Shown here piece by piece: positions 4,614-59,289 of a DNA stretch of 64,000 bases. The translations under genes were made by a program, and so were the position numbers. The notes under the pieces were generated by a model. That model ran no database searches. It was not told where the DNA came from and was given only the letters and a program-made list of their open reading frames with translations. Position 1 is the stretch's first letter, and every line of letters starts with the position of its first letter. This stretch comes from Rhodanobacter sp. Its GTDB lineage: Bacteria; Pseudomonadota; Gammaproteobacteria; Xanthomonadales; Rhodanobacteraceae. The DNA lies in contig SCRF01000109.1 of NCBI GenBank assembly GCA_004322005.1, positions 632-64,631 on the forward strand. Direction: 5' to 3'.

Positions 4614-4915
4614 GGGCAGGCGGGTTGTCGAGGCAGCGGGCGTCAAGGTCTCCGACCGCATGAGCGGTCGCAGATTGCGCTTGTCACGGTCCGGTGTTCA
4701 GCTGGCATTCGCATTGCGCAGGAGGCATGGGTCGGGCATCGCCGCGCGCCCGTTCGAAGCGGGCGCATTCGACGGCTTTCGGTCAATGCCGATGCCATGC
4801 CCGAGACACGCAGACCGTCCGCCTGCACCCCGGGCGATCGCCAGCCACTCAATCGGGGTTCACCAGCCACCCGGCAAACTGGGCGATCAGGGACATCCGT
4901 CGAATAAACTCCGGC

Positions 4916-7900
4916 ATGCAAAAGAAACCGATTTTCTTCGACCCCACCGGTCGACGGGCCAGCCACATTTCGCGGCTCGGGCTGCTGGCGGGCGTCGTCA
5001 GCACGTTGTTCGTGGTGGCGTTCGCGGCCAGCCTGCTGATCGGGCCGAGCATGGCCGGATTGAAGCTGGGCGGCCGCGGCAAGGGTCTGCATTCGGTGGC
5101 GGCGGTGCCGGCGCTGCTGAAACCGGCGGCGCGGCTGGCGGCGGAAGTGCTGGCCAGACAGAAACTGCTGCACGCCCATCGCGTACGCAAGCCGCACAAC
5201 AACCCGTCGAGGCTGCGGCCGCCCGCGCTGGCCAAGCCGGCCGGCCGGGCCCTGGCGATCGGCTTCTACGTCAACTGGGACGACGGCAGCTACGCCTCGC
5301 TGAAGCGCGCGCTGCCCACGCTGGATTGGGTCATCCCCACCTGGATGAGCCTGAGCGGGCCGCAGATGGCGCTGAAAACCAGCGTCGACGCCAAGGCGTT
5401 CGACCTGATCCGCCGGGTCAAGCCGTCGACGCCGATCCTGCCGCTGTTGCAGAATGCGGTGGACAGTGTCTGGGACGGCCCGGGCCTTGCGCGTCTGCTG
5501 GCGGATCCGGCCATGCGGCAGGCGCGCATCGCGCAGATCGTCGCTTTCCTCGCGGCCAACAAGTTCCAGGGCCTGACGGTCGACTTCGAGGATGTGCCCG
5601 GGAGCGCGCAGAAGAACCTGCAGGCGTTCCTGTCGGAGCTGTCCGACGCATTCGCGCCGCACGGCTGGGCGATCGTGCTGTCGGTACCGTTCGACGACGC
5701 GACCTGGGACTATGCCGCCTACGCCAATATCGTCGATTTCGAGCTGTTGATGGCCTACGACGAACACTGGGCCGGCAAGGACCCGGGCAGCATCGCCGGC
5801 GAAACCTGGTTCGAGGACACGCTCGACAAGCGCATGAAGGTGCTCGATCCGGACCAGACCATCATCGCGATCGGCAGCTACGGCTACGACTGGTCGCGCG
5901 GGCAGAACGCCGAGGCGCTCACCTTCCAGGACGCCATGGATCGCGCGGCGGACGCGCAGGCCGGCATCAGCTTCGACGCGGACACGCAGAACCCGCACTT
6001 CTCCTACAGCGAGGACGACGGCACCGTGCATCAGGTCTGGTTTCTCGACGGGGTGACCGCGTACAACCAGATCCACGCCGCCGATACCTATAAACCTTAC
6101 GGCTATGCCGTGTGGCGGCTGGGTTCGGAGGATCCGTCGATCTGGCCGCTGCTGGGGCGCGACTACGACGCCGCGGCGCCGGCACAGCTGGGGCAGATCG
6201 GCCAAGGTGAGGACATCGACATCGAGGGCGAGGGCGAGGTGCTGCAGATCGCTTCGCAGCCGGCGCCCGGCTCGCGCACCTTCGAGGTCGAGAAGGGCAC
6301 TGGCGACATCGACGACGAGAGCTACACCAGCCTGCCCACGTCCTACGTGATCCAGCGCGTGGGCACGCTGCCGCACAAGATCGCGCTGACCTTCGACGAT
6401 GGCCCGGATCCGCAGTGGACGCCGCAGATCCTCGATATCCTCAAGGCGAAGCACGTGCCGGCCACGTTCTTCATCATCGGCGAGAATGCCGAGTCGTCGC
6501 CGCGACTGGTGCAACGCATGGTCGACGAGGGCCACGACGTCGGCAACCACACCTTCACCCACCCCAATCTCGGCGACACCTCGCCGGGCATCACGGCGCT
6601 GGAACTCAATGCCACCCAGCGCCTGTTCGAGGCGTTGACCGGGCGCTCGATGCGGTTGTTTCGTGCGCCGTACTTCGGCGATGCCGAACCGACTACCGCC
6701 GACGAACTGGTGCCGATCCAGCTGGCGCAGAAGATGGGCTACATCGCGGTGGGGCTGCACATCGACCCGGACGACTGGCAGCGCCCGCCGGCGGACCTGA
6801 TCGTCAGCCGGGTGCTGACCCAGGCGACTGCCACCGGTTCCGCCCGGCACGGCCAGGTGGTGCTGCTGCACGATGGCGGCGGCGATCGCGCCAACACGGT
6901 GGAAGCCCTGCCGCGCATCATCGACGGCCTGCGCGCGCAGGGCTACCAGTTCGTCACCGTGTCCACGCTGGCCGGACTGACCCGCGACCAGGGCATGCCG
7001 CCGTTGCCGCCGGGTTCGCTGTCGCGACTGGCCGACCGCTCGGTATTCCTGACCCTGGGCTGGTTCGGGCATCTGCTGCGGTCGCTGTTCCTCGCCGCAA
7101 TCTGGCTTGGCATTGCACGGCTGCTGTTGCTGGGTGGGCTGGGCCTGCTCAACTGGCTGCGCGACCGGCGGCGCACGCCGCCATCGATCGGCGACGACCC
7201 GGCGCTGGTGTCGGTGCTGATCCCGGCCTACAACGAGGAGAAGGTGATCGTGGGCTCGATCCGGCGGATTCTGGCGAGCCGCTATCCGAAGCTGGAGATC
7301 ATCGTTGTCGACGATGGATCCGTCGACGCCACCTCGGCGGTGGTCAGCGCACATTATGCGAACGAGCCGCGCGTGCGCCTGCTGACCGTCCCCAACGGCG
7401 GCAAGGCCCATGCGGTCAATACCGCGCTGCGCGAAGCGCGCGGCACGGTGATCGTGGCGCTGGACGCCGATACCCAGTTCGAGCCCGATACCATCCCGTG
7501 TCTGGTGCGCTGGTTCGCCGACCCGCGGGTCGGTGCGGTCGCCGGCAATGCCAAGGTCGGCAACCGGATCAACCTGATCACCTGGTGGCAGGCGCTGGAA
7601 TACATCACCGCGCAAAACCTGGAACGCCGGGCACTGGCGGCACTCGGCGCGATCACCGTGGTGCCGGGCGCCGTCGGCGCGTGGCGCCGCGAGGCGCTGG
7701 AACGGCTCGGCGGCTTCCCGGGCGAAACCCTGGCCGAGGACCAGGATCTGACCATCGCGATCCAGAAGGCCGGTTACAAGACGCTGTTCGACAGCGAAGC
7801 GATCGCCTGGACCGAGGCGCCGGACAGCATGCGTGGGCTCGCTCGTCAGCGCTTCCGCTGGGCCTACGGCACCCTGCAATGCCTGTGGAAACACCGCGAT

Positions 7901-8077
7901 GCCACCTTCCGTCCGCGCTATGGTGCGCTCGGCATGGTGGCGCTGCCACAGGTATGGCTGTTCCAGATCGTCTTCTCGGTGGTGTCGCCGCTGGTTGATC
8001 GCTGCTGGTCTGGCAGATCATCTCCACCGGCCTCGATTACCTGCAGCATCGCGGCCAGTTCGATCCCGACAACCTGA
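4916..8077 (+). CDS. fused TM anchor / GH18-like domain / NodB polysaccharide deacetylase / family-2 processive glycosyltransferase; C-terminus disrupted by an apparent frameshift near 8000
   Basis: Start MQKKPIFFDPTGRR followed by a TM segment. GLTVDFEDV is GH18-like. IALTFDDGPD..GNHTFTHP are NodB motifs. VLIPAYNEE..VVDDGS..ALDADT..QRFRWAYG are processive GT2 motifs. After about 7998 the reading frame no longer looks like the family. Confidence 0.8.
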   Translation: MQKKPIFFDPTGRRASHISRLGLLAGVVSTLFVVAFAASLLIGPSMAGLKLGGRGKGLHSVAAVPALLKPAARLAAEVLARQKLLHAHRVRKPHNNPSRLRPPALAKPAGRALAIGFYVNWDDGSYASLKRALPTLDWVIPTWMSLSGPQMALKTSVDAKAFDLIRRVKPSTPILPLLQNAVDSVWDGPGLARLLADPAMRQARIAQIVAFLAANKFQGLTVDFEDVPGSAQKNLQAFLSELSDAFAPHGWAIVLSVPFDDATWDYAAYANIVDFELLMAYDEHWAGKDPGSIAGETWFEDTLDKRMKVLDPDQTIIAIGSYGYDWSRGQNAEALTFQDAMDRAADAQAGISFDADTQNPHFSYSEDDGTVHQVWFLDGVTAYNQIHAADTYKPYGYAVWRLGSEDPSIWPLLGRDYDAAAPAQLGQIGQGEDIDIEGEGEVLQIASQPAPGSRTFEVEKGTGDIDDESYTSLPTSYVIQRVGTLPHKIALTFDDGPDPQWTPQILDILKAKHVPATFFIIGENAESSPRLVQRMVDEGHDVGNHTFTHPNLGDTSPGITALELNATQRLFEALTGRSMRLFRAPYFGDAEPTTADELVPIQLAQKMGYIAVGLHIDPDDWQRPPADLIVSRVLTQATATGSARHGQVVLLHDGGGDRANTVEALPRIIDGLRAQGYQFVTVSTLAGLTRDQGMPPLPPGSLSRLADRSVFLTLGWFGHLLRSLFLAAIWLGIARLLLLGGLGLLNWLRDRRRTPPSIGDDPALVSVLIPAYNEEKVIVGSIRRILASRYPKLEIIVVDDGSVDATSAVVSAHYANEPRVRLLTVPNGGKAHAVNTALREARGTVIVALDADTQFEPDTIPCLVRWFADPRVGAVAGNAKVGNRINLITWWQALEYITAQNLERRALAALGAITVVPGAVGAWRREALERLGGFPGETLAEDQDLTIAIQKAGYKTLFDSEAIAWTEAPDSMRGLARQRFRWAYGTLQCLWKHRDATFRPRYGALGMVALPQVWLFQIVFSVVSPLVDRCWSGRSSPPASITCSIAASSIPTT

Positions 8078-8344: not shown

Positions 8345-10708
8345 CTATAGCGGCGTCAGATGGGCATACGCGGCCACCAGCCACTTGCTGCCGGCACCTT
8401 CGAAATTCACCTGCAGGCGCATGTGCGCGCCGCTGCCTTCGGCACTGATCACCACGCCTTCGCCGAAGCTGGGGTGGCTGACCCGCTGGCCGAGTTTCAC
8501 CGGCAGGTCTTCCGCCAGCGAGGTGGATGCGCCATGGCGCGCCGCACCGCTGTAGAGCGGGCGGCTGACCTGCACGCGCGGGCGCACTTCGTCGATCAGT
8601 TCGCCCGGCATCTCGCCGAGAAAGCGCGACGGTCGCGCCAGCATCTCGGTACCGTGCATGCGGCGCGATTCGGCGTGGGTGACGATGAGTCTTTCGCGCG
8701 CGCGGGTGATGCCGACGTAGGCCAGCCGGCGCTCCTCTTCCAGCCGGCCTTCGTCGTCGACCGAACGCTGACTGGGAAACAGGCCCTCTTCCATGCCGAC
8801 CAGGAACACCACCGGAAATTCCAGCCCCTTGGCCGAATGCAGCGTCATCAGCTGCACGCAGTCGTCCCACGTCTCGCCCTGGTGCTCGCCGGCTTCCAGT
8901 GCCGCGTGCGACAGGAACGCCGACAGTTCGTTCAAACCCGTCTCGATGTCGTCAGGGGTCAGTTCGAAGCGGCTGGCGACGTTGATCAGTTCGTCCAGGT
9001 TTTCCACTCGCGATTCGGCGTTGCCGCGGCTGTCCTTCTCGTAGAAATCGCGCAGGCCGGTATGGGTGATCGTGTGGTCGATCTGTTCGGCGAGGGTGAG
9101 GCTCTGGGGACCGGGGACCAGGGACCGGGGACCGGCAGTGGGCAAGGCGTCGATGAGCTCGCGGGGTGTGGCTTCGCTGGAAGCGGCTTCTTCGGACGGT
9201 GCGATGGCCTCCGGGTCATCCGGTCCCCGGTCCCCGGTCCCCGGTCCCGCGAACGCACGCGCCAACTCCTCGATCAAGGCCAGAAACGCCTTCACCGTAT
9301 TCTTCGCGCGCCCGGCCAGTTCGCCGCCGGCCAGTTCGGTCAAGGCGGCTTCCCACATCGAGGTGTTCTGGCCGCGTGCGCGACGGCGCAGCACGTCCAG
9401 CGTGCGCTCGCCGATACCTCGCGCGGGTGTATTGACAGCCCGTTCGAATGCCGCATCATCATGCCGGTTCGCGGTAAGGCGAAGGTAGGCCAGGGCGTCC
9501 TTGACCTCGGCGCGATCGAAGAACCGCTGGCCGCCGTAGACGCGGTACTTGATGTTGCGCTGGGTCAGCTGTTCCTCGAAGTTGCGCGACTGTGCGTTGG
9601 AGCGGTACAGGATCGCGCAGTCTTTCGCGCTGCCCGGAGGTGAATCGTCGTGGCCGGCGATGAACTCGCGGATGCGCTCGATCACGAAGCGCGCCTCGTC
9701 CTGTTCGTTGTAGGCCGCGTACAGCGCGATGCGTTCGCCTTCGCCGCCGGCGGTCCACAGCTGCTTGCCCAGGCGCCCGCCGTTGTGCGCGATCACGCTG
9801 TTGGCGGCCTTGAGGATGGTCGCGGTGGAGCGGTAGTTCTGTTCCAGCTTGATCGTGCGGGCACCGGGGAAGTCGCGCAGGAACTGCTGCATGTTCTCGA
9901 CCTTGGCGCCGCGCCAGCCGTAGATCGACTGGTCGTCGTCGCCGACGGCGAACACTTGACCGGGACCGGTCCCCGGTCCCGGTCCCGCTCCAGCCCCAGA
10001 CAACACCCGGATCCACGCATACTGCAGCGTGTTGGTGTCCTGGAACTCGTCGATCAGCAGATGCCGCCAGCGCTGCTGGTAGTGCTCCAGCAGCGCCGGG
10101 TTCTTCAGCCACAACTCGTGCGCGCGCAGCAGCAGTTCGGCGAAGTCGACCAGCCCGGCGCGACGGCAGGCATCCTCGTAGGCCTGGTAGATCTGCACGA
10201 AGGTGCGGGTGACCGGATGGTCGCGGTGCTCGATGCTGCCCGGGCGTTTGCCCTCGTCCTTCCACTGGTTGATCTGCCAGCCGGCCTGGCGCGGCGGAAA
10301 CTTCGCCTCGTCCAGGCCCAGTCCGGCGACGACGCGCTTGACCAGCCGCAGCTGATCGTCGGCGTCGAGGATCTGGAAGGTCTCCGGCAACCCCGCCTCG
10401 CGCCAGTGCCGGCGCAGCAGGCGGTGGGCGATGCCGTGGAAGGTGCCGACGGTGAGCCCCTGGGTGCCGCCCGGAATCAGCGCGTCCAGCCGCGCGCGCA
10501 TCTCGCCGGCCGCCTTGTTGGTGAAGGTGACGGCGAGAATCGCCCATGGCGGTACGCGTTCAGCCTGGGTCAGCCAGCCGATCCGGTGGGTCAGGACGCG
10601 GGTCTTGCCGGAACCGGCGCCGGCCAGGATCAGGTAATGGCCGGGCGGGGCGCAGACCGCTTCACGCTGCGCGTCGTTGAGCGGGTCGATCAGGTGCGAG
10701 ACATCCAT
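8345..10708 (-). CDS. uvrD: DNA helicase II (UvrD)
   Basis: LNDAQREAV..AGAGSGKTRVL (Walker A), LIDEFQDTN, VGDDDQSIYGWRGA, and the C-terminus KWLVAAYAHL are collinear with E. coli UvrD. Two repeat-derived inserts interrupt the alignment. Confidence 0.95.
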   Translation of the reverse strand: MDVSHLIDPLNDAQREAVCAPPGHYLILAGAGSGKTRVLTHRIGWLTQAERVPPWAILAVTFTNKAAGEMRARLDALIPGGTQGLTVGTFHGIAHRLLRRHWREAGLPETFQILDADDQLRLVKRVVAGLGLDEAKFPPRQAGWQINQWKDEGKRPGSIEHRDHPVTRTFVQIYQAYEDACRRAGLVDFAELLLRAHELWLKNPALLEHYQQRWRHLLIDEFQDTNTLQYAWIRVLSGAGAGPGPGTGPGQVFAVGDDDQSIYGWRGAKVENMQQFLRDFPGARTIKLEQNYRSTATILKAANSVIAHNGGRLGKQLWTAGGEGERIALYAAYNEQDEARFVIERIREFIAGHDDSPPGSAKDCAILYRSNAQSRNFEEQLTQRNIKYRVYGGQRFFDRAEVKDALAYLRLTANRHDDAAFERAVNTPARGIGERTLDVLRRRARGQNTSMWEAALTELAGGELAGRAKNTVKAFLALIEELARAFAGPGTGDRGPDDPEAIAPSEEAASSEATPRELIDALPTAGPRSLVPGPQSLTLAEQIDHTITHTGLRDFYEKDSRGNAESRVENLDELINVASRFELTPDDIETGLNELSAFLSHAALEAGEHQGETWDDCVQLMTLHSAKGLEFPVVFLVGMEEGLFPSQRSVDDEGRLEEERRLAYVGITRARERLIVTHAESRRMHGTEMLARPSRFLGEMPGELIDEVRPRVQVSRPLYSGAARHGASTSLAEDLPVKLGQRVSHPSFGEGVVISAEGSGAHMRLQVNFEGAGSKWLVAAYAHLTPL
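9106..9248. repeat. GGGACCGG-type inverted repeat (29-30 bp arms, ~84 bp centre) inside uvrD, in frame
   Basis: Left arm 9106-9135 is ggggaccggggaccagggaccggggaccgg. Right arm 9220-9248 is its reverse complement with one mismatch. Confidence 0.85.
9958..9988. repeat. short GGGACCGGTCCC-type palindromic repeat inside uvrD, in frame
   Basis: gaccgggaccggtccccggtcccggtcccgc encodes AGPGPGTGPG, where E. coli UvrD has only about 4 residues (LAGDTGKV). Confidence 0.75.
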
Positions 10709-11422: not shown

Positions 11423-14194
11423 TCAATGCGCCTCGTCCCAGTTCGCACCCACGCCCACATCGACCAGCAATGGCACCGCCAGTTCCGCCGCGCCTGACAT
11501 TCGTTCGATGACCGCGGCACGCACGCTGTCGACCGCGTCGACGCGCACCTCGAACACCAGCTCGTCGTGTACCTGCATCAGCATGTGCACGTCGTTGCGC
11601 CCGTTGATCCAGGCGGCCATGGCGATCATCGCGCGCTTGATGATGTCGGCCGCGGTGCCCTGCATCGGTGCATTCACCGCTGCGCGTTCGGCGCCCTGGC
11701 GCAGGCTCTGGTTGCGCGAGGCGAGGTTTTCCAGATACAGCCGCCGGCCGAACAGGGTCTCGACGTAGCCGTCGCGGTGCGCCTGCTCGCGCGTGGCGTC
11801 CATGTAGGCGCGCACGCCGGGGTAGCGCGCGAAGTAGCGCGCCATGTAATCGCCGGCCTCGCCGCGGTCGACGCCGAGCTGGCGGGCCAGTCCGAACGCG
11901 CTCATGCCGTACATCAGGCCGAAGTTGATCGCCTTGGCGGCACGGCGCTGATTGGTGGTGATTTCGTCCGGCGGCACACCGAACACTTCCGCCGCGGTGG
12001 CGCGATGCACGTCGCCGCCTTCGTGGAACGCGCGCAGCAGGCCCTCGTCGCCGGACAGGTGCGCCATGATGCGCAGCTCGATCTGCGAGTAGTCCGCCGC
12101 CAGCACCTGCCAGCCCGGCGGCGCGATGAAGGCCTGGCGGATGCGCCGGCCCTCCTCGGTACGCACCGGGATGTTCTGCAGGTTCGGGTCGGACGAGGAC
12201 AGCCGCCCGGTCGCCACCGCGCCCTGGTGATAGCTGGTGTGCACGCGGCCGGTGCGCGGGTTGACGATGCCGGCCAGCTTGTCGGTGTAGGTGGAACGCA
12301 GCTTGGCCAGGCCGCGATAGTCCAGGATCAGCCGCGGCAGCTCGTGTGTGTCGGCGATCGCTTCCAGGGCCTCCTCGTTGGTGGAGGGCTGGCCGGTCGG
12401 GGTTTTCAGCTTTGCCTTGAGGCCGAGTTCGTCGAACAGGATCGCCTGCAACTGCTTGGGCGAGTCCAGATTGAACTCGCGCCCTGCCGAGCCGAATGCC
12501 AGCTGCTGCAGTTCCAGCATCCGCTTGCCCAGTTGCTGGCTCTGCCGGCGCAGTTCGTCGCCGTCGATCAGCACGCCGTGCCGTTCCATCGCGGCCAGCA
12601 CCGGAACCAGCGGAATCTCGATCTCTTCGTAGACGCTGCGCAGCTTCGGCGCGCCCCGCAGCAAGGGCCACAGCGCGTGATGCAGGCGCAGGGTGACGTC
12701 GGCATCCTCGGCGGCATAGCGGCAGGCGGTATCCAGATCCACCTGCGAGAACGAAATCTGTTTCGCGCCCTTGCCGGTGACCTGCTCGTATTTGACCGTC
12801 TCGTAGCCGAGGTATTTGCGTGCCAGCGAATCCATGTCGTGGCGCGTGGCGGTGGCGTTCCACACGTAGGATTCGAGCATGCTGTCGTGGCGAAGCCCCT
12901 GCACGGCGATGCCGTAATGGCTGAGCACGTTGATGTCGTACTTGGCATGCTGGCCGAGCTTGGCTTTGGTGGTGTCCTCGAACAGCGGCTTGAGTGCGGC
13001 CAGCACGCTGTCGCGGTCGAGCTGCTCAGGCGCGCCGGGATAATCGTGGCCCAGCGGAATGTAGCAGGCCCGGCCCAGTTCCACCGCGAAGCTGATGCCG
13101 ACGATGTCCGCACGCATCGCGTCGATGCTGGTGGTTTCAGTGTCGAACGCGATCAGTTCGGCGCCGCGCAGTTTTTCCAGCCACGCATCGAAACGGGCCG
13201 GGGTAGTGACCAGTTCGTATTCGCCCGGCCCCCGTAGGAGCGCACCCTGTGCGCGAAGCTCTTGGGGCGATACTTCGGAGCTTTCGCTGGAGCTCTCGCC
13301 AGAGCTTTCGCCAGAGCTTTCGCGCACAGGGTGCGCTCCTACGGGGGCGGCGGGACCATCGAGCTCTTTCAGCGCCGCCTTGAACTCGTAACGGGTGTAC
13401 AGCTCGCGCAGCCGTGCGGTGTCTGCCTCGCGCCGGGCCAGGTCGGTGGGGCCGAATTCCAGCGGCACATCGGTCTTGATCGTCACCAGCTCGCGCGACA
13501 GCGGCAGCAGCGGCAGCGTGGCGCGCAGGCTCTCGCCGATCTTGCCGCCGATCCGGTCGGCGTTCGCGATCACGCCGTCCAGTGTGGTGTATTCGGTCAG
13601 CCATTTGGCGGCGGTTTTCGGGCCGCACTTGGGCACCCCAGGCACGTTGTCGATGGTATCGCCGGTAAGCGCGAGAAAATCGACGATCTGCTGCGGCCGC
13701 ACGCCGAATTTTTCCATCACCCCGGCGCTGTCGGTGATGGTGTTGCTCATGGTGTTGATGAGGGTCACGTGCGACCCCACCAGCTGCGCCATATCCTTGT
13801 CGCCGGTGGAGATCAGTACCTCGATGCCGAGTGCCTGCGCCTGCACGGCGAGCGTGCCGATCACGTCGTCGGCCTCGACCCCCGGCACGCGCAGGATCGG
13901 AAAACCGAGCGCGCCCACGATCGCCAGCATCGGTTCGACCTGCGCGCGCAGGTCGTCCGGCATCGGCGGCCGGTTCGCCTTGTACTGCTCGTACAAGACG
14001 TCGCGGAAGGTCGGGCCGGGAGCATCGCTGACGAAGGCGAGATAATCCGGGTTGGCCTTCAACGTCGCGCGCAGCATGTTGACCACGCCGAACAGCGCGC
14101 CGGTCGGTTCGCCGTGGGCATTGCTCAGCGGCGGCAGCGCATGGAAGGCGCGATACAGATAGGAAGAGCCGTCGATCAGTATGAGTTTGGCCAT
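11423..14194 (-). CDS. polA: DNA polymerase I
   Basis: The 5' nuclease (LILIDGSSYLYRAFHA), the 3'-5' exonuclease (IAFDTETTS) and the polymerase motifs (DYSQIELRIMAH, QVHDELVFE) are all present. An alternative ATG lies at 14209. Confidence 0.95.
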   Translation of the reverse strand: MAKLILIDGSSYLYRAFHALPPLSNAHGEPTGALFGVVNMLRATLKANPDYLAFVSDAPGPTFRDVLYEQYKANRPPMPDDLRAQVEPMLAIVGALGFPILRVPGVEADDVIGTLAVQAQALGIEVLISTGDKDMAQLVGSHVTLINTMSNTITDSAGVMEKFGVRPQQIVDFLALTGDTIDNVPGVPKCGPKTAAKWLTEYTTLDGVIANADRIGGKIGESLRATLPLLPLSRELVTIKTDVPLEFGPTDLARREADTARLRELYTRYEFKAALKELDGPAAPVGAHPVRESSGESSGESSSESSEVSPQELRAQGALLRGPGEYELVTTPARFDAWLEKLRGAELIAFDTETTSIDAMRADIVGISFAVELGRACYIPLGHDYPGAPEQLDRDSVLAALKPLFEDTTKAKLGQHAKYDINVLSHYGIAVQGLRHDSMLESYVWNATATRHDMDSLARKYLGYETVKYEQVTGKGAKQISFSQVDLDTACRYAAEDADVTLRLHHALWPLLRGAPKLRSVYEEIEIPLVPVLAAMERHGVLIDGDELRRQSQQLGKRMLELQQLAFGSAGREFNLDSPKQLQAILFDELGLKAKLKTPTGQPSTNEEALEAIADTHELPRLILDYRGLAKLRSTYTDKLAGIVNPRTGRVHTSYHQGAVATGRLSSSDPNLQNIPVRTEEGRRIRQAFIAPPGWQVLAADYSQIELRIMAHLSGDEGLLRAFHEGGDVHRATAAEVFGVPPDEITTNQRRAAKAINFGLMYGMSAFGLARQLGVDRGEAGDYMARYFARYPGVRAYMDATREQAHRDGYVETLFGRRLYLENLASRNQSLRQGAERAAVNAPMQGTAADIIKRAMIAMAAWINGRNDVHMLMQVHDELVFEVRVDAVDSVRAAVIERMSGAAELAVPLLVDVGVGANWDEAH
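13229..13347. repeat. GTAG-type REP inverted dimer with an internal 4 x 12 bp tandem array, inside polA, in frame
   Basis: Arms are cccccgtaggagcgcaccctgtgcgcgaa (13229-13257) and ttcgcgcacagggtgcgctcctacggggg (13319-13347). The 12-mers gagctttcgctg/gagctctcgcca/gagctttcgcca/gagctttcgcgc span 13278-13325. Confidence 0.9.
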
Positions 14195-14287
14195 GCGCCA
14201 TTCTCGCATGCACGCGCGAATCGGCGCGCTTCACGAACGCTCGGCGGGCGCACTGCTATGCTTTGCTTCCCGATCGAGGTTGCCGCC

Positions 14288-14794
14288 ATGAAAATCGCTG
14301 CCTTGCTGGTTGCCGCCAGCGTTCTGCTCGCTTCCAGCGCCTTTGCGCAGTCGTCGGCGTCAAGCACGAACGTGCCGCCACCACCGGGCATCAACGATCC
14401 GGGCGTGAAGGCGGTGTCGTCCACTACGAAATCGGCCGTCGAGCGCGAGCAGACCGGCACGCCGAAGTCCAGCCAGGCGCCGCTGACCCTGCCGCCCATG
14501 AAGAGCGGCGACAGCCGGCTCGGCCGCCATGCGTCGCCGCCGGACGTCCGGGTGCGCCAGGAAGGTGACATCAATGTGCAGGAATACCGGCGCAATGGCC
14601 AAGTCTACATGGTGGTGGTGACGCCCAAGAACGGCATCCAGCAGATCTACACGGTCGATCCGCAGGGCCGCCTGGTCGATGAACACGGCCAGAAACCGGT
14701 GGGGCCGGTCATGTACAAGGTACTGGAATGGGGCAAGAGCAGGCCGCCCGCGAAGGCTGCCGCTGCAGACACACAGAGTACCGACGGGCATTGA
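14288..14794 (+). CDS. DUF2782-like secreted protein
   Basis: Signal peptide MKIAALLVAASVLLASSAFA, then the conserved core ..VQEYRRNGQVYMVVVTPKNG..YTVD. Divergent from polA, as is typical for this family. Confidence 0.6.
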   Translation: MKIAALLVAASVLLASSAFAQSSASSTNVPPPPGINDPGVKAVSSTTKSAVEREQTGTPKSSQAPLTLPPMKSGDSRLGRHASPPDVRVRQEGDINVQEYRRNGQVYMVVVTPKNGIQQIYTVDPQGRLVDEHGQKPVGPVMYKVLEWGKSRPPAKAAAADTQSTDGH

Positions 14795-14871
14795 TGCCGC
14801 TCTTGGCATTTCGTCCTCGATGCATGCCGGGTTGCCGGCATCAGGGGCGCCCCCGGGGAAGAGGATGAACG

Positions 14872-15303
14872 ATGCACCTGCGTGAAAGCTGGCTGCTGTT
14901 CGCGCTGGGCTCGGCGCTGTTTGCGGCGTTGACCGCTTTGTTCGGCAAGCTTGGTGTGGTTGGCATCAATTCCAACCTCGCCACCTTCATCCGCACCATC
15001 GTGATCCTGCTGGTCACCGCCGGCATCCTCAGCCTGCGCCGGGAGTGGGTCAGGCCGACCGGATTGCCGCTGCACAGCTGGCTGTTCCTGGTGCTGTCGG
15101 GTATCGCCACCGGGCTGTCGTGGCTTTGCTATTACCGTGCGCTGCAGCTTGGTCCGGTCAGCAAGGTGGCGCCGATCGACAAGCTCAGCGTGGCCCTGGC
15201 GATCGTGCTGGGGTTGGTGTTTCTCGGCGAGCGACCAAGCTGGCCGCTGCTGATCGGTGGCGTGCTGATCGTGTCCGGGGCGATGGTGATTGCGCTGTTT
15301 TGA
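14872..15303 (+). CDS. EamA-domain (DMT superfamily) small membrane transporter
   Basis: 143 aa with 4-5 TM segments and an EamA-like pattern (..APIDKLSVALAIVLGLVFLGE..). Confidence 0.65.
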   Translation: MHLRESWLLFALGSALFAALTALFGKLGVVGINSNLATFIRTIVILLVTAGILSLRREWVRPTGLPLHSWLFLVLSGIATGLSWLCYYRALQLGPVSKVAPIDKLSVALAIVLGLVFLGERPSWPLLIGGVLIVSGAMVIALF

Positions 15304-15319
15304 ACGGTCCGACAGGCTG

Positions 15320-15544
15320 CTAGAGCGGATCGTCCAGCTCAGGGTAATGGCGGAAGATGCCGTTCTCGTTGAACGCCAGCCGCCGCGGAGAGTCGAGATA
15401 AGCCGCGATGCGCGGCCGTTCCGCGACCCGTTTGGCCAGGGCCCGCAGCCGTGGGAGGTCGCGCCCGAGGCGCCGCATCGTGCGGGGGAACGCGTAGTCC
15501 AGTCCGGCCATCAGCTGGAATAGCGAAAGGTCGACATAGGAGTG
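15320..15544 (-). pseudogene. remnant of a glutathione S-transferase (C-terminal domain only)
   Basis: ..[47 protein letters not shown] looks like a GST C-terminal domain. The thioredoxin-like N-domain is missing. The ORF track's first 15 codons (to 15589) are REP sequence. Confidence 0.45.
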
Positions 15545-15553
15545 TTCGCGCGT

Positions 15554-15624
15554 GTAGGAGCGCACCTTGTGCGCGATGCTCTTCGTCACGTGACGAAAAG
15601 CTCGCGCACAGGGTGCGCTCCTAC
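15554..15624. repeat. GTAG-type REP inverted dimer
   Basis: gtaggagcgcaccttgtgcgcgatgctcttcgtcacgtgacgaaaagctcgcgcacagggtgcgctcctac. Confidence 0.85.
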
Positions 15625-15632
15625 CGGCGGGG

Positions 15633-17222
15633 TCAGTGCCGGAAGTGCCGGACCCCGGTGAACACCATCGCCATGTCGTGTTCGTCGGCGGCGGCGATGA
15701 CCTCGGCGTCGCGCATCGAGCCGCCGGGCTGGATCACCGCCCGGATGCCGGCGGCGGCAGCGGCATCGATGCCGTCGCGGAACGGGAAGAACGCATCGCT
15801 GGCCATCGCGCTCCCCGGCACCGTCAGACCGGCCTCGTCGGCTTTCAGCCCGGCGATCTTCGCACTGACGACGCGGCTCATCTGGCCGGCACCGACGCCG
15901 ATCGTGCGGCCGTCCTTCGCGTAGACGATCGCGTTGGACTTCACGTATTTCGCGACCTGCCAGGCAAACAGCAGGTCATCGAGTTCCTGCGCCGTGGGTG
16001 CGCGTCTGCTCGCGACTTTCAGTTCGTCGCGGCCCACCATGCGCCGGTCGGCGCTCTGGATCAGCAGGCCGGAGCCGACCCGCTTGAGGTCGTGCGTGTT
16101 GTGGCCGTCGCCCGGCGGAATCTCAAGCACGCGCACGTTGGCTTTCGCGGCGGCGGCTTCGACCGCGCCCGCTTCGACCTTCGGCGCGATCAGCACCTCG
16201 ACGAACTGGCGCTTGAGGATCGTCTTCGCGGTTTCGGCGTCGAGTGGGCGGTTGAACGCCACGATGCCACCGAACGCGGAAGTCGGGTCGGTCGCATAGG
16301 CCAGCTCGTAGGCCGCCAGCGGATCGGCCGCCACGGCGACGCCGCAGGGGTTGGCGTGCTTGACGATGACGCAGGCCGGCGCCTCGAACTGGCGCACGCA
16401 CTCCCAGGCCGCGTCGGCATCGGCGATGTTGTTGTACGACAGCTCCTTGCCCTGCAACTGGCGGAACGTGGCCAGCGTGCCGGGCGCCGGATGCAGGTCG
16501 CGATAGAACGCGGCCTGCTGATGCGGGTTTTCGCCGTAGCGCAGATCCATCAACTTCACGAAGTGCTGGTTGCTCTGCGCCGGGAAGGCGGCGTGGCCGG
16601 CGATCGCGGCCTGCGTGTCATCGAGTTCGAGTGCGGAAAGGTAATCGCTGATCGCACCGTCGTAGTCGGCCACGCGGTTGAACGCGGCCACCGACAGCTT
16701 GAAACGGGTGGCGCGGGTCAGCCCGCCGCGCGTCTCGATCTCGCTCAACGCGTCGGCATACTGGTCGGGCGAGGTGAGTACGCCGACGTCGTTCCAGTTC
16801 TTTGCCGCGGAACGCAGCATCGCCGGGCCGCCGATGTCGATGTTCTCGATCGCCTGCTCGAGGGTGCAGCCCGGCTTCGCCACGGTGGCCTCGAACGGGT
16901 ACAGGTTGAGCACCAGCAGGTCGATCGGCGCGATGCCCAGTTCGGCCATCACCGCGTCGTCGGTGCCGCGGCGACCGAGCAGTCCGCCATGCACGTTCGG
17001 GTGCAACGTCTTCACGCGGCCGTCCATGATTTCCGGGAAACCGGTGACGTCGCTGACTTCCGTCACCGCCACGCCGGCCTCGCGCAGCGCCTTCGCACTG
17101 CCACCGGTGGACAGCAGCTCCACGCCGCAGGCCGCCAGTCGCCGGCCCAGCTCGATCAGGCCGGACTTGTCGGAAACGCTGAGCAGGGCCCGGCGGACCG
17201 GGACGAGAGTGGATGGGGACAT
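15633..17222 (-). CDS. purH: bifunctional AICAR transformylase / IMP cyclohydrolase
   Basis: [31 protein letters not shown] and the C-terminus FTGVRHFRH are typical PurH. Confidence 0.95.
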
Positions 17223-18719: not shown

Positions 18720-19733
18720 TCAGCGACGCCGACCGCTGATCCGCACCCAGTCCTCGCGGCGATCCACGCGCAGCTCGTCAAACCATTCCGCGTAATGCTG
18801 CAGCAGTTCATCCTGCTGGCCGGCGAGGATGCCGGAGATCGCGAACGGTGCGCGTGGCTTGGCGGCGGCAGCGAACGTCGGCGCCAGCTCGAGCAACGGG
18901 CCGGCGAGGATGTTCGCGAGAAACACGTCGGCAGGCGACGTGCATGGATGCACTAGTGTCGCGGGCGCAGGATGCGCAGGAGCGACCGACGTGCATGGAT
19001 GCACTAGTGTCGCGGGCGCAGGATGCGCAGGAGCGACTTGCCCGCAAAAATCCTGCGGGAGATACAGCGCCAGCCGTTCGGCGACGCCATTGCGTTGGGC
19101 GTTGTCGGCCGAGGCAGTCAGTGCCTGCGGATCGTTGTCGATGCCCACGGCACTGGCCGCACCGAGCTTCAGCGCGGCGATCGCCAGAATGCCCGAGCCG
19201 CAGCCGTAGTCGATCACACTCTTGCCGGCCAGCTCGAGCCCGTCGAGCCATTCCAGGCACAGCGCGGTGGTCGGATGCGTGCCGCTGCCGAAGGCCAGGC
19301 CCGGGTCGAGCCGGACCACCACCGGCGCGTCATCGCCGTTCTCGCTGTGCGTGGGCGGCTCGATGTTCCACGGATAGATCCACAGGCGCCGGCCAAACGG
19401 CATCGGCCGGTACTGGTCCATCCACACCCGTTCCCAGTTCTGGTCGGCCACTTCGCGAAACTGCAGCTGATCGGGTTCGAGCCATGGCAGCAGTTCACCG
19501 AGTGTTTCGCTGAGACCGCGGCGATCGACGTGTTCGTCGAACAGTGCCTGCAGGGTGATCGTCGGCCACAGCGGCAATTCGCCCACGCCGGGCTCGAAGA
19601 TCGCCTGTTCGTCCGGCGTCTGCGCATCGGCGTCCTGCAGGGTGATCGACAGCGCGCCCAGATCGTTCAGCGCGTCTTCGACAGCGGGTTGCTGAGTGGC
19701 GCGGACAGTGAGGGAAAGTTCAAGCCATGGCAT
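18720..19733 (-). CDS. prmA: ribosomal protein L11 methyltransferase
   Basis: MPWLELSL.., DPGLAFGSGTHPTT, DYGCGSGILAIAA and ANILAGPL are collinear with E. coli PrmA except for a 34-aa duplicated insert. Confidence 0.9.
   Translation of the reverse strand: MPWLELSLTVRATQQPAVEDALNDLGALSITLQDADAQTPDEQAIFEPGVGELPLWPTITLQALFDEHVDRRGLSETLGELLPWLEPDQLQFREVADQNWERVWMDQYRPMPFGRRLWIYPWNIEPPTHSENGDDAPVVVRLDPGLAFGSGTHPTTALCLEWLDGLELAGKSVIDYGCGSGILAIAALKLGAASAVGIDNDPQALTASADNAQRNGVAERLALYLPQDFCGQVAPAHPAPATLVHPCTSVAPAHPAPATLVHPCTSPADVFLANILAGPLLELAPTFAAAAKPRAPFAISGILAGQQDELLQHYAEWFDELRVDRREDWVRISGRRR
18937..19038. repeat. perfect-but-one 2 x 51 bp tandem duplication inside prmA, in frame
   Basis: The unit gacgtgcatggatgcactagtgtcgcgggcgcaggatgcgcaggagcgacc occurs at 18937-18987 and again at 18988-19038 (last base differs). 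It encodes VAPAHPAPATLVHPCTS twice. Confidence 0.9.
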
Positions 19734-19752: not shown

Positions 19753-19831
19753 GTAGGAGCGCACCCTGTGCGCGAAAAGCTCTGATCGAAACGTCCGTAA
19801 AGAGCTTTTCGCGCACAGGGTGCGCTCCTAC
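19753..19831. repeat. GTAG-type REP inverted dimer (prmA-accC intergenic)
   Basis: gtaggagcgcaccctgtgcgcgaaaagctct...agagcttttcgcgcacagggtgcgctcctac. Confidence 0.9.
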
Positions 19832-21207: not shown

Positions 21208-21223
21208 GGGGAAAACTCCGGAG

Positions 21224-21314
21224 GCCGGGACCGGGGACCGGGAACCAGGGACCGGAAGAGCAAAAGCGGCGCGGCTCTTGGCTTTTCCTGGTCCCTGGTT
21301 CCCGGTTCCCGGCC
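21224..21314. repeat. GGGACCGG-type imperfect inverted repeat filling the accB-accC spacer
   Basis: The arm gccgggaccggggaccgggaaccagggaccgg pairs with cctggtccctggttcccggttcccggcc. A central mini-hairpin aagagc..gctctt is present. The element begins 5 nt from the accC Shine-Dalgarno. Confidence 0.8.
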
Positions 21315-21324
21315 CCGCCCAAAA

Positions 21325-25784: not shown

Positions 25785-25985
25785 GTAGGAGCGCACCCTG
25801 TGCGCGAATACCTTTATCCGAGCGCCCCCGCCTCGCCACCCGCGTAGGAGCCCGCTCGCGGGCGATGCTCTGATAGCGTGGCCAGAAGAGCATCGCCCGC
25901 AAGCGGGCTCCTACTGGTGGTGGGTGCGAGCCGATGCCGAGCGTCGCGCCGACGTTCGCTTTATCGCCCGCAAGCGGGCTCCTGC
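25785..25985. repeat. cluster of GTAG-type REPs (solo, inverted dimer, solo)
   Basis: Solo gtaggagcgcaccctgtgcgcga at 25785-25807. Dimer gtaggagcccgctcgcgggcgatgctct..agagcatcgcccgcaagcgggctcctac at 25844-25914. Solo atcgcccgcaagcgggctcctgc at 25963-25985. Confidence 0.85.
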
Positions 25986-34289: not shown

Positions 34290-34359
34290 GTAGGAGCCCG
34301 CTCGCGGGCGATGCTCTGGGGTCGCGCGATCAGGGCATCGCCTGCGAGCGGGCTCCTGC
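34290..34359. repeat. GTAG-type REP inverted dimer
   Basis: gtaggagcccgctcgcgggcgatgctct..gcatcgcctgcgagcgggctcctgc. It overlaps the last ~10 codons of the 34330-35322 CDS. Confidence 0.85.
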
Positions 34360-44254: not shown

Positions 44255-44276
44255 CGCCGGTATTGTAGCGGAGGCA

Positions 44277-44296
44277 GGAACGGGGACCGGGGAAGA
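44277..44296. repeat. solo GGGACCGG-type repeat fragment
   Basis: ggaacggggaccggggaagaac. Confidence 0.5.
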
Positions 44297-59214: not shown

Positions 59215-59289
59215 GTAGGAGCGCGCTTGCGCGCGATGCTCTTGTCGATGAACATCCGCGGAGAGCATCGCGCGCAAGCGCGCTCCTAC
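59215..59289. repeat. GTAG-type REP inverted dimer
   Basis: gtaggagcgcgcttgcgcgcgatgctct..agagcatcgcgcgcaagcgcgctcctac. Confidence 0.85.

Follow-up and report, generated by a model that had tools for sequence, protein, structure and literature searches.

The palindrome in uvrD

We analysed a 64-kb stretch of Rhodanobacter sp. DNA (64,000 nucleotides of contig SCRF01000109.1; hereafter the window), in which a 143-bp inverted-repeat element lies in frame within uvrD, the gene for DNA helicase II. The gene occupies positions 8345 to 10708 on the minus strand as an open reading frame (ORF) of 787 amino acids (aa). Its product matched the NCBIfam model PRK11773 (DNA helicase II) with 1106 bits (cut-off, 965) and aligned with the Escherichia coli UvrD structure 2is1 (E = 4e-255) in two blocks parted at the insert, query residues 1-486 pairing with E. 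coli residues 1-472 and query residues 538-746 with residues 476-679. At this position, termed site 1, 51 residues replace 3 between E. coli residues 472 and 476, and the net gain of 48 agrees with the number of extra residues given in an initial annotation of this DNA. That annotation had placed the insert at the junction of domains 2B and 2A; residues 472-476 would instead fall inside domain 2B, the limits of which we take to be 378-550, reportedly those of Lee and Yang in 2006. It had also called the helicase essential, whereas E. coli can do without uvrD, important as the gene is.

In the direction of the uvrD mRNA (minus strand throughout), the element comprises a G-rich arm of four perfect GGGGACC heptamers at 9220-9248 (translated GPGTGDRGP), an 84-nt centre at 9136-9219 (translated DDPEAIAPSEEAASSEATPRELIDALPTA), and a C-rich arm of four CCGGTCC heptamers with one mismatch at 9106-9135 (translated GPRSLVPGP). 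The inverted-repeat arms at 9107-9135 and 9220-9248, 29 nt each with 84 nt between them, were 97% complementary and the 787-aa frame was intact, as had been claimed for this locus. Tandem Repeats Finder returned for each arm a period of 7, with 4.1-4.3 copies and 91-100% matches (GGGGACC and CCGGTCC). The motif GGGACCGGGGACC, with at most two mismatches, was found 16 times in the window versus 3.3 +/- 1.9 times in dinucleotide shuffles (0 of 100 shuffles reached 16), and the matches were grouped at 9107-9248, 9968-9980, and 21227-21316. Folding of the coding strand from 9090 to 9265 (176 nt) gave -101 kcal/mol (z = -5.4 versus dinucleotide shuffles), in support of a very stable hairpin in the mRNA.

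The palindrome segment reads ..AGPGTGDRGPDDPEAIAPSEEAASSEATPRELIDALPTAGPRSLVPGPQS.. in the uvrD frame, and the complete insert peptide would be GPGTGDRGP-DDPEAIAPSEEAASSEATPRELIDALPTA-GPRSLVPGPQ. Its composition (48 residues: 9 Pro, 6 Gly, 7 Ala, 9 Asp plus Glu, and 4 Ser) suggests that the centre is an acidic, Pro/Ser/Ala-rich loop and probably disordered, flanked by arms that we infer to be translated as Gly/Pro-rich peptides. AlphaFold2 modelling on a 120-sequence UvrD alignment, in which all sequences were at least 84% identical to the window protein, gave a mean predicted local distance difference test score (pLDDT) of 41. Because this alignment was too shallow to yield a usable model, the model was set aside and the insert was placed by way of the sequence alignment with 2is1. 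A search of the 84-nt centre by blastn-short against the window and all compared loci (2.05 Mb) returned chance matches of 12-18 nt only, and the idea that the centre is a copy of neighbouring uvrD sequence (ELIDAL versus LIEEL) was dropped on the same grounds. An Rfam scan (E <= 1) of the uvrD and accB-accC elements gave no family match.

The source DNA is Rhodanobacter/Dyella-like, Rhodanobacter spathiphylli giving the best genome match (83%). Occupancy of site 1 was assessed in 120 Rhodanobacter/Dyella UvrD proteins, selected as full-length matches. The segment between ..EMAR(T/A)F and LTLAEQ.. ranged from 2 residues (SS) to ~62, so that the alignment of orthologues, which the initial annotation had proposed as a check, revealed a presence/absence polymorphism. 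Many inserts open and close with peptides that correspond to translated heptamer arrays, namely GTGNGERGT ... VPRSPFPVP (unit GGGGAAC), GIGNRESGI ... (unit GGGAATC), and, in the window and its closest relative (L081), GPGTGDRGP ... GPRSLVPGP (unit GGGGACC); a further unit, GGGACTC, was found at the uvrD sites of Rhodanobacter umsongensis (L132). Site 1 holds only 2-11 residues in E. coli (3 residues), Oleiagrimonas, Lysobacteraceae, and some Rhodanobacter, and it was empty or short in L086, L087, and L004-L007. No insert was present in Oleiagrimonas, in the Rhodanobacteraceae and Lysobacteraceae genomes compared, or in Stenotrophomonas, Pseudoxanthomonas, and Luteimonas. Upon comparison of the DNA, all G-first inserts were seen to have the same start nucleotide and a common left junction, ..TTCGCG followed by GGA(unit)...

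Hairpin strength at site 1 varied from z = -7.7 to z = +1.1 across loci. It was high in the window (z = -6.6 in this cross-locus comparison) and L084 (z = -7.7), intermediate in L082, L083, and L088, and at shuffle level in L001, L081, and L085, the last of which has retained a perfect four-unit left array and lost the right arm. On the evidence of these comparisons site 1 has been occupied for a long time, by elements that decay. The insertion is thus neither private to the window nor recent, since the same nucleotide position is filled across most of the genus by palindromes with differing heptamer units, many of them decaying.

A second palindrome type was also observed at site 1, in L084 (within 13374-15668), L002, L003, L082, and L133. 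Here the C-rich arm leads, and both arms are small hairpins in their own right (CCCTCTCCCC-TGC-GGGGAGAGGG). The translation reads SPSPLRGEGWGEG...PSPNPLPAGEGAS, with SPSPLRGEGRGEG ... PSPNPLPAGERAS as peptides at the insert ends, and the L084 copy has a folding energy of -91 kcal/mol (z = -7.7).

The UvrD protein of the window has been recorded from one contig only, and a repeat-induced misjoin in a metagenome-assembled contig could produce such an insert. That the element is an assembly artefact is hardly credible, given that the frame is intact over both junctions, that L081 carries the window's GGGGACC unit at both site 1 and accB-accC, and that comparable inserts lie at the same position in many independent assemblies and in the isolate genomes of Rhodanobacter sp. 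Root179, Rhodanobacter sp. Soil772, and R. umsongensis. The arrays might also make uvrD a contingency locus, in which gain or loss of one 7-nt unit, 7 not being a multiple of three, would shift the frame and truncate UvrD after domain 2B. Unit number does vary in arrays of this class, and loss of uvrD is mutagenic in E. coli, so that a reversible mutator state could result. We nevertheless consider this very improbable: four units form a short tract for frequent slippage, intergenic copies could not act in this manner, and there was no frameshifted allele among the 120 UvrD proteins, although this set had been preselected as full-length.

Another explanation is that the element has been kept for uvrD function, with the hairpin or a G-quadruplex setting mRNA stability or translation rate, or with the loop modifying domain 2B, the regulatory domain of UvrD-like helicases. 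The very stable hairpins of the window and L084 and the filling of site 1 in most lineages of the genus would be consistent with such a role, as would the regulatory status of the domain. However, sequence, length, and even element type are hypervariable at site 1, several congeners have 2-11 residues there, decay has left a hairpin no stronger than shuffles in L001, L085, and L081, and the same elements occur in unrelated spacers. For the heptamer repeats of Xanthomonas, Rehm et al. likewise saw no regulatory role (PMC4692102). We regard retention for uvrD function as improbable, and no sign of a uvrD-serving role was found in the data described here. Since it is variable, absent from congeners, and decaying in several lineages, the element is most likely a tolerated passenger without a role in UvrD.

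A second insertion was identified between helicase motifs II and III (site 2; 9961-9991, minus strand), where the window protein has 9 extra residues, GPGPGTGPG, between E. coli UvrD residues 239 and 240 in the 2is1 alignment. The coding DNA at this site (..GCG followed by GGACCGGGACCGGGGACCGGTCCCGGT..) looks like the collapsed remnant of a second heptamer palindrome (..GGGACCGGGACCGGGGACCGGTCCC..). R. umsongensis has a full palindrome at site 2, consisting of (GGGACTC)x4, a loop, and CCGAGTCCCGCC, and L133 has (GGGAATC)x4, a loop, and a decayed right arm; in most genomes the site is empty (GCCGGCGCGACCGGCCAG). In R. umsongensis the elements at both uvrD sites have the unit GGGACTC and an identical 16-nt loop start (GAAGAGCAAAGGCCCG), and this match in unit and loop start is the clearest sign that the elements are copied from place to place.

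Palindromes and PF05635 genes in the accB-accC spacer

The intergenic second copy reported in the initial annotation is a palindrome at 21223-21320, within the 117-nt spacer between accB and accC (21208-21324, minus strand). It carries no ORF, and its GGGGACC/GGGAACC arms (21223-21253 and 21290-21320; 31 nt, 90% complementary) fold at -85 kcal/mol (z = -7.8). Rfam microRNA-precursor models matched this hairpin below threshold, which marks it as a generic GC-rich hairpin. This copy, the motif clusters in the window, and the copies in relatives support the view that the arms belong to a dispersed repeat and are not specific to uvrD.

The spacer was compared across eight polA-centred syntenic loci (L081-L088). 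In L084, L086, and L088 it is 10 nt long (GGCCGCCCGG) and free of any element, L081 has a palindrome and loop as in the window, and L082 has a palindrome with GGGGAAC arms and a different loop. In L083 and L085 the same position holds a gene of ~126 codons between inverted GGGAATC/GGGATTC arrays (cassette coordinates, 2497-2941 and 2540-2983, respectively), and the products matched Pfam PF05635 (23S rRNA-intervening sequence protein, S23p) with E = 6e-35 and E = 5e-36. L087 has a PF05635 gene just upstream of accC; this locus ends inside the gene and the upstream arm lies beyond the locus end. Many Xanthomonadales-like genomes likewise have a PF05635 gene between inverted GGGAATC/GGGATTC arrays exactly at accB-accC (L089-L126). 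A metagenome scan with proteins of the L083/L085 type gave 43 loci, most of them accB-accC insertions, and in ~30 metagenome contigs the gene stands between inverted heptamer arrays at this site. The cassette gene can have its start codon within the left arm, and the right arm can directly adjoin the ATG of accC.

PF05635 genes at other loci are likewise bracketed by inverted arrays of short tandem units, with the unit GGGGTCT in L117, GGGTTAC in L118 (an AT-rich genome), GGCGAAT in L122, and similar arrays in L120 and L127. In L119 a PF05635 gene lies between carA and carB (1504-1952) with arms of (GGGGACC)x4, the unit of the window; in this locus the carA frame was seen to continue into the left arm, so that CarA ends ..MMRDRGPGTGDRAVGDPS. 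L110 contains three elements in 12 kb, a cassette at accB-accC and ORF-less palindromes at accC-prmA and purH-purD. The ORF-bearing relatives of the element thus encode a PF05635 four-helix-bundle protein and not a transposase. No PF05635 homologue was found within the 64-kb window.

Parts of the ORF-less and ORF-bearing elements could be aligned. The loop of the window's accB-accC palindrome corresponds to the 3' end of the cassettes found at that site in relatives, AAGCCAAGAG and GCTCTT(A/C)C being common to both, and the GCTCTT(A/C)C stretch sits directly before the C-rich arm. G-R-A-A-G-C follows the last left-arm unit in 12 of 15 elements, ORF-less and ORF-bearing. On this basis we regard the ORF-less elements in spacers as cassettes that have undergone internal deletion.

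A census of heptamer units by autocorrelation scan gave GGGGACC/GGGAACC at uvrD site 1 and accB-accC in the window, GGGGACC at the same two sites in L081, GGGAATC/GGGAAGC at both in L083, and GGGACTC at both uvrD sites in L132. L110, L121, and L126 each had at least three arrays, with the units GGGATTC/GGGGATT and, in one array of L110, GGGAATC. At the orthologous accB-accC site the unit was GGGGACC, GGGGAAC, GGGAATC, or GGGATTC, depending on the genome. In these sequences the unit tracks the genome and not the locus, with agreement within a genome and difference between genomes at orthologous sites. Conversion to a master copy may have made the arms uniform within each genome, or the same sites may be overwritten repeatedly by the active family of each genome. 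Besides the copy in accB-accC, the one in uvrD, and the remnant at site 2, the window yielded an array of ~2.5 units (AGGAACGGGGACCGGGGAAG) at 44276-44295 with no inverted partner nearby, possibly left over from another element; in relatives, additional spacers hold copies.

Alternatively, the palindromes could have arisen in place at each locus, if polymerase slippage expanded a short G-rich seed, in uvrD one in the loop-coding DNA, to a heptamer array and intrastrand template switching then made the inverted partner. Heptamer copy number is highly variable in this class of repeats, as described for Xanthomonas (PMC4692102) and Coxiella strains (PMC4990558), the centres of different palindrome copies are unrelated, no target duplication was found, and the empty sites are GC-rich and partly palindromic, such as GCCGGCGCGACCGGC at site 2. 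The perfect four-unit left array of L085 without a right arm would also fit an origin of this kind. However, the same architecture surrounds PF05635 genes at unrelated loci, the unit and 16-nt loop start are identical at two sites of one gene in L132, and the loop-proximal motif is common to 12 of 15 elements. Moreover, loci 10 kb apart in one genome have matching units, which independent local expansion would not give. We therefore consider a local origin without mobility unlikely.

Relation to described repeats and probable origin

Repeats with a heptamer unit, GGGNATC, were described in Xanthomonas by Rehm et al. (2015, PLoS One; PMC4692102). The two genomes studied had 186 and 183 repeats, with four units preferred; 89-93% were intergenic, mostly between and near co-directional ORFs, and 7-11% were intragenic. 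Between 70 and 75 convergent pairs were capable of forming stem-loops, unit number varied extensively between species, and positions 1-4 and 6 of the consensus were conserved. The repeats were read as G-quadruplex formers for which no function or regulatory role was found, and S23p is nowhere mentioned in that paper. The elements described here resemble these repeats in having ~four tandem heptamers with an initial G-tract (GGG(A/G)) and convergent pairs that form inverted repeats, apparently, to judge from the 64-kb window and relatives, in lying near stop and start codons between co-directional genes with a minority intragenic, and in differing in unit number and sequence between related genomes at one locus; both belong to the order Xanthomonadales. 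They differ in the unit, GGGGACC (GGGAACC; also read GGGACCG) and not GGGAATC, so that GGGNATC does not apply and position 6 is C and not T, as well as in the Rhodanobacter-like host and in the uvrD copy, a complete pair within a coding region and in frame. Relatives have GGGAATC, GGGGAAC, and GGGACTC at the same site, and the window unit is therefore a variant in a graded series. The uvrD element thus adds to a published class of G-rich heptamer repeats a new member whose unit is a variant and which lies in frame within a gene.

The intervening sequences with S23p genes offer a second parallel. That of the Coxiella burnetii 23S rRNA contains an S23p ORF, has a 28-bp terminal stem that is cut by RNase III, and carries 3-4 tandem heptamers (GACAGAT), the number of which varies between strains; Leptospira and Xanthomonas are named as other S23p hosts (Warrier et al. 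2016, PMC4990558). Terminal inverted repeats, a stem of ~28 bp with tandem heptamers, and an ORF that is optional or decaying are common to both systems. The uvrD element has a stem of this size (29 bp, 1 mismatch), and the cassettes of relatives at accB-accC and carA-carB have exactly the layout of such an intervening sequence. In contrast, the elements described here lie in uvrD and in the accB-accC spacer and not in 23S rRNA, and the ORF-less uvrD copy must remain in the mRNA and be translated, whereas intervening sequences are excised by RNase III and discarded. PF05635 itself is related to Avd, a protein of diversity-generating retroelements (PMC10053308). No paper tying PF05635 or TIGR02436 genes to heptamer repeats outside rRNA was found in the literature searched, subscription journals being outside its coverage, and dimers of GGGAATC/GGGATTC and their complements had no occurrence in the literature text searched.

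The initial annotation had called the element MITE-like, that is, similar to miniature inverted-repeat transposable elements such as the Correia element of Neisseria. The comparison holds only loosely. Small size, terminal inverted repeats, dispersal, the non-autonomous nature, and co-transcription with neighbouring genes are common to both, and the hairpins of Correia elements are RNase III targets. The absence of target-site duplications, unrelated centres where those of MITEs are conserved, and the lack of a transposase-bearing parent insertion sequence (the PF05635 product is not a transposase) set the present family apart. In Rickettsia, palindromic elements of 100-150 bp, reportedly described by Ogata et al. 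in 2000, are said to lie in frame in housekeeping genes as tolerated surface segments. The uvrD element, a palindromic repeat in frame within a conserved protein, parallels these in behaviour and not in identity: by that description sequence family and host are unrelated, and the Rickettsia copies are alike over their whole length, whereas in the present family only the arms, and sometimes the loop edges, are common between copies. The GTAG-headed repetitive extragenic palindromic (REP) sequences and bacterial interspersed mosaic elements (BIMEs), which are associated with REP-associated tyrosine transposases (RAYTs; Nunvar et al. 2010, PMC2817692), are likewise short palindromes in operon spacers; the uvrD element differs from them in having no GTAG head and in having arms of tandem heptamers.

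Taken together, the 143-bp unit is probably an ORF-less member of a dispersed family of heptamer-armed palindromes that has settled in UvrD in a permissive loop, presumably at the surface. Members of the family have as arms inverted arrays of ~four G-rich heptamers (GGGNNNN), which in relatives bracket small PF05635 genes. Heptamer slippage and copying between elements of one genome would keep the arms uniform and young-looking, while the centre would drift, shrink, or be lost. Because translation has to continue into the conserved C-terminal half of UvrD, we infer that only in-frame, stop-free inserts survive. Like the stem of S23p-type intervening sequences, the 29-bp stem in the mRNA would be a potential RNase III substrate, and a G-quadruplex could arise in the G-rich arm; stem cleavage and the quadruplex would each lower uvrD expression, a cost to the host. 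As a guess, the family may spread by copying that depends on the hairpin and is linked to the PF05635 cassettes.

Several points weigh against this interpretation. Comparison of filled with empty sites revealed no direct repeat at the junctions, so that the target-site duplication for which the initial annotation had proposed to look was not found, and no recombinase or transposase could be tied to the heptamer family. The uvrD centre has no G-R-A-A-G-C and no relative in 2.05 Mb, and a hidden Markov model (HMM) of 32 cassette proteins detected no PF05635 remnant in six-frame translations of the uvrD inserts (best E = 2). The source genome was sampled over 64 kb, so that copy number is based on two and a half elements. 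That the insert is translated, that it is disordered, and that RNase III cleaves the stem are predictions. In a neighbour-joining tree of UvrD with the insert masked, insert types were interleaved with short sites; the tree was shallow and open to recombination, and the attempt to count insert gains and losses on it was dropped for this reason. Finally, the recurrent filling of one nucleotide position could reflect targeting, or this could be the sole place where insertions survive.

A wider proposal, which we put forward tentatively and consider doubtful as it stands, is that a single family of hairpin cassettes, spreading to loop-coding DNA and to short spacers rich in GC, comprises both the Xanthomonadales heptamer palindromes and the 23S rRNA intervening sequences of the S23p type. 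Palindromes without an ORF, the one in uvrD included, would then be deletion derivatives of cassettes, and the PF05635 protein would be an accessory factor matched to the heptamer unit. If true, such a unit-matched factor would account for the agreement of units within a genome and for their difference between genomes at the same site.

Other repeats of the window and significance of the uvrD element

Several further features were observed in the window. polA (11423-14209, minus strand) contains an in-frame doublet of another palindromic repeat with a GTAG head (GTAGGAGCGCACCCTGTGCGCGAA) at 13221-13355. Its 37-nt arms are 92% complementary and read VGAHPVRE and RAQGALLR, and its loop is a 12-nt tandem repeat (13278-13323) translated as SSGESSGESSSESS. 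The doublet lies in the linker between the 5' nuclease and 3'-5' exonuclease domains; it is present in L081, L082, and L133 and absent from L083-L088. Five intergenic members of this GTAG-headed, REP-like palindrome family were found at 15549-15629, 19753-19831, 25844-25914, 34292-34357, and 59215-59289, with 27-31-nt arms and 12-25-nt loops, two of them with sub-threshold Rfam microRNA-precursor matches. No RAYT gene turned up in the window, in which no search aimed at RAYT was made.

In prmA (18720-19733, minus strand), a perfect in-frame 51-bp tandem duplication was found at 18936-19037 (VAPAHPAPATLVHPCTS twice), through which PrmA reaches 337 aa in the window versus 298-329 in relatives. 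Between uvrD and polA, the segment 11172-11284 (minus strand) gave a full-length match to the Xanthomonadaceae small RNA sX13 (RF02232; 40.8 bits, E = 7e-5), under the family gathering score of 50. Immediately downstream of uvrD is an ORF of ~1127 aa (4694-8077, plus strand), whose counterparts in L081 and L082 matched Pfam GH18, polysaccharide deacetylase, and glycosyltransferase family 2. Apart from the window, only these two closest relatives have the ORF; the remaining six syntenic loci hold other genes at this position, with hemY directly after uvrD in three of them.

What is gained for uvrD is modest: the protein tolerates 9 to ~60 additional residues at two loops, in domain 2B and between motifs II and III, which is of use in annotation and protein engineering. 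The larger value is comparative, in that the same positions in uvrD and accB-accC are empty, hold an ORF-less palindrome, or hold a PF05635 gene between like arms. This links two puzzles that have been kept apart in the literature searched, the nature of the Xanthomonas heptamer repeats and the nature and spread of S23p intervening sequences. What merits further work is the connection with PF05635 cassettes, together with the way units are distributed among genomes, and the loci described here offer concrete sites and isolates (Rhodanobacter sp. Root179 and Soil772, and R. umsongensis) for studies of mobility, of processing by RNase III, and of protein binding.

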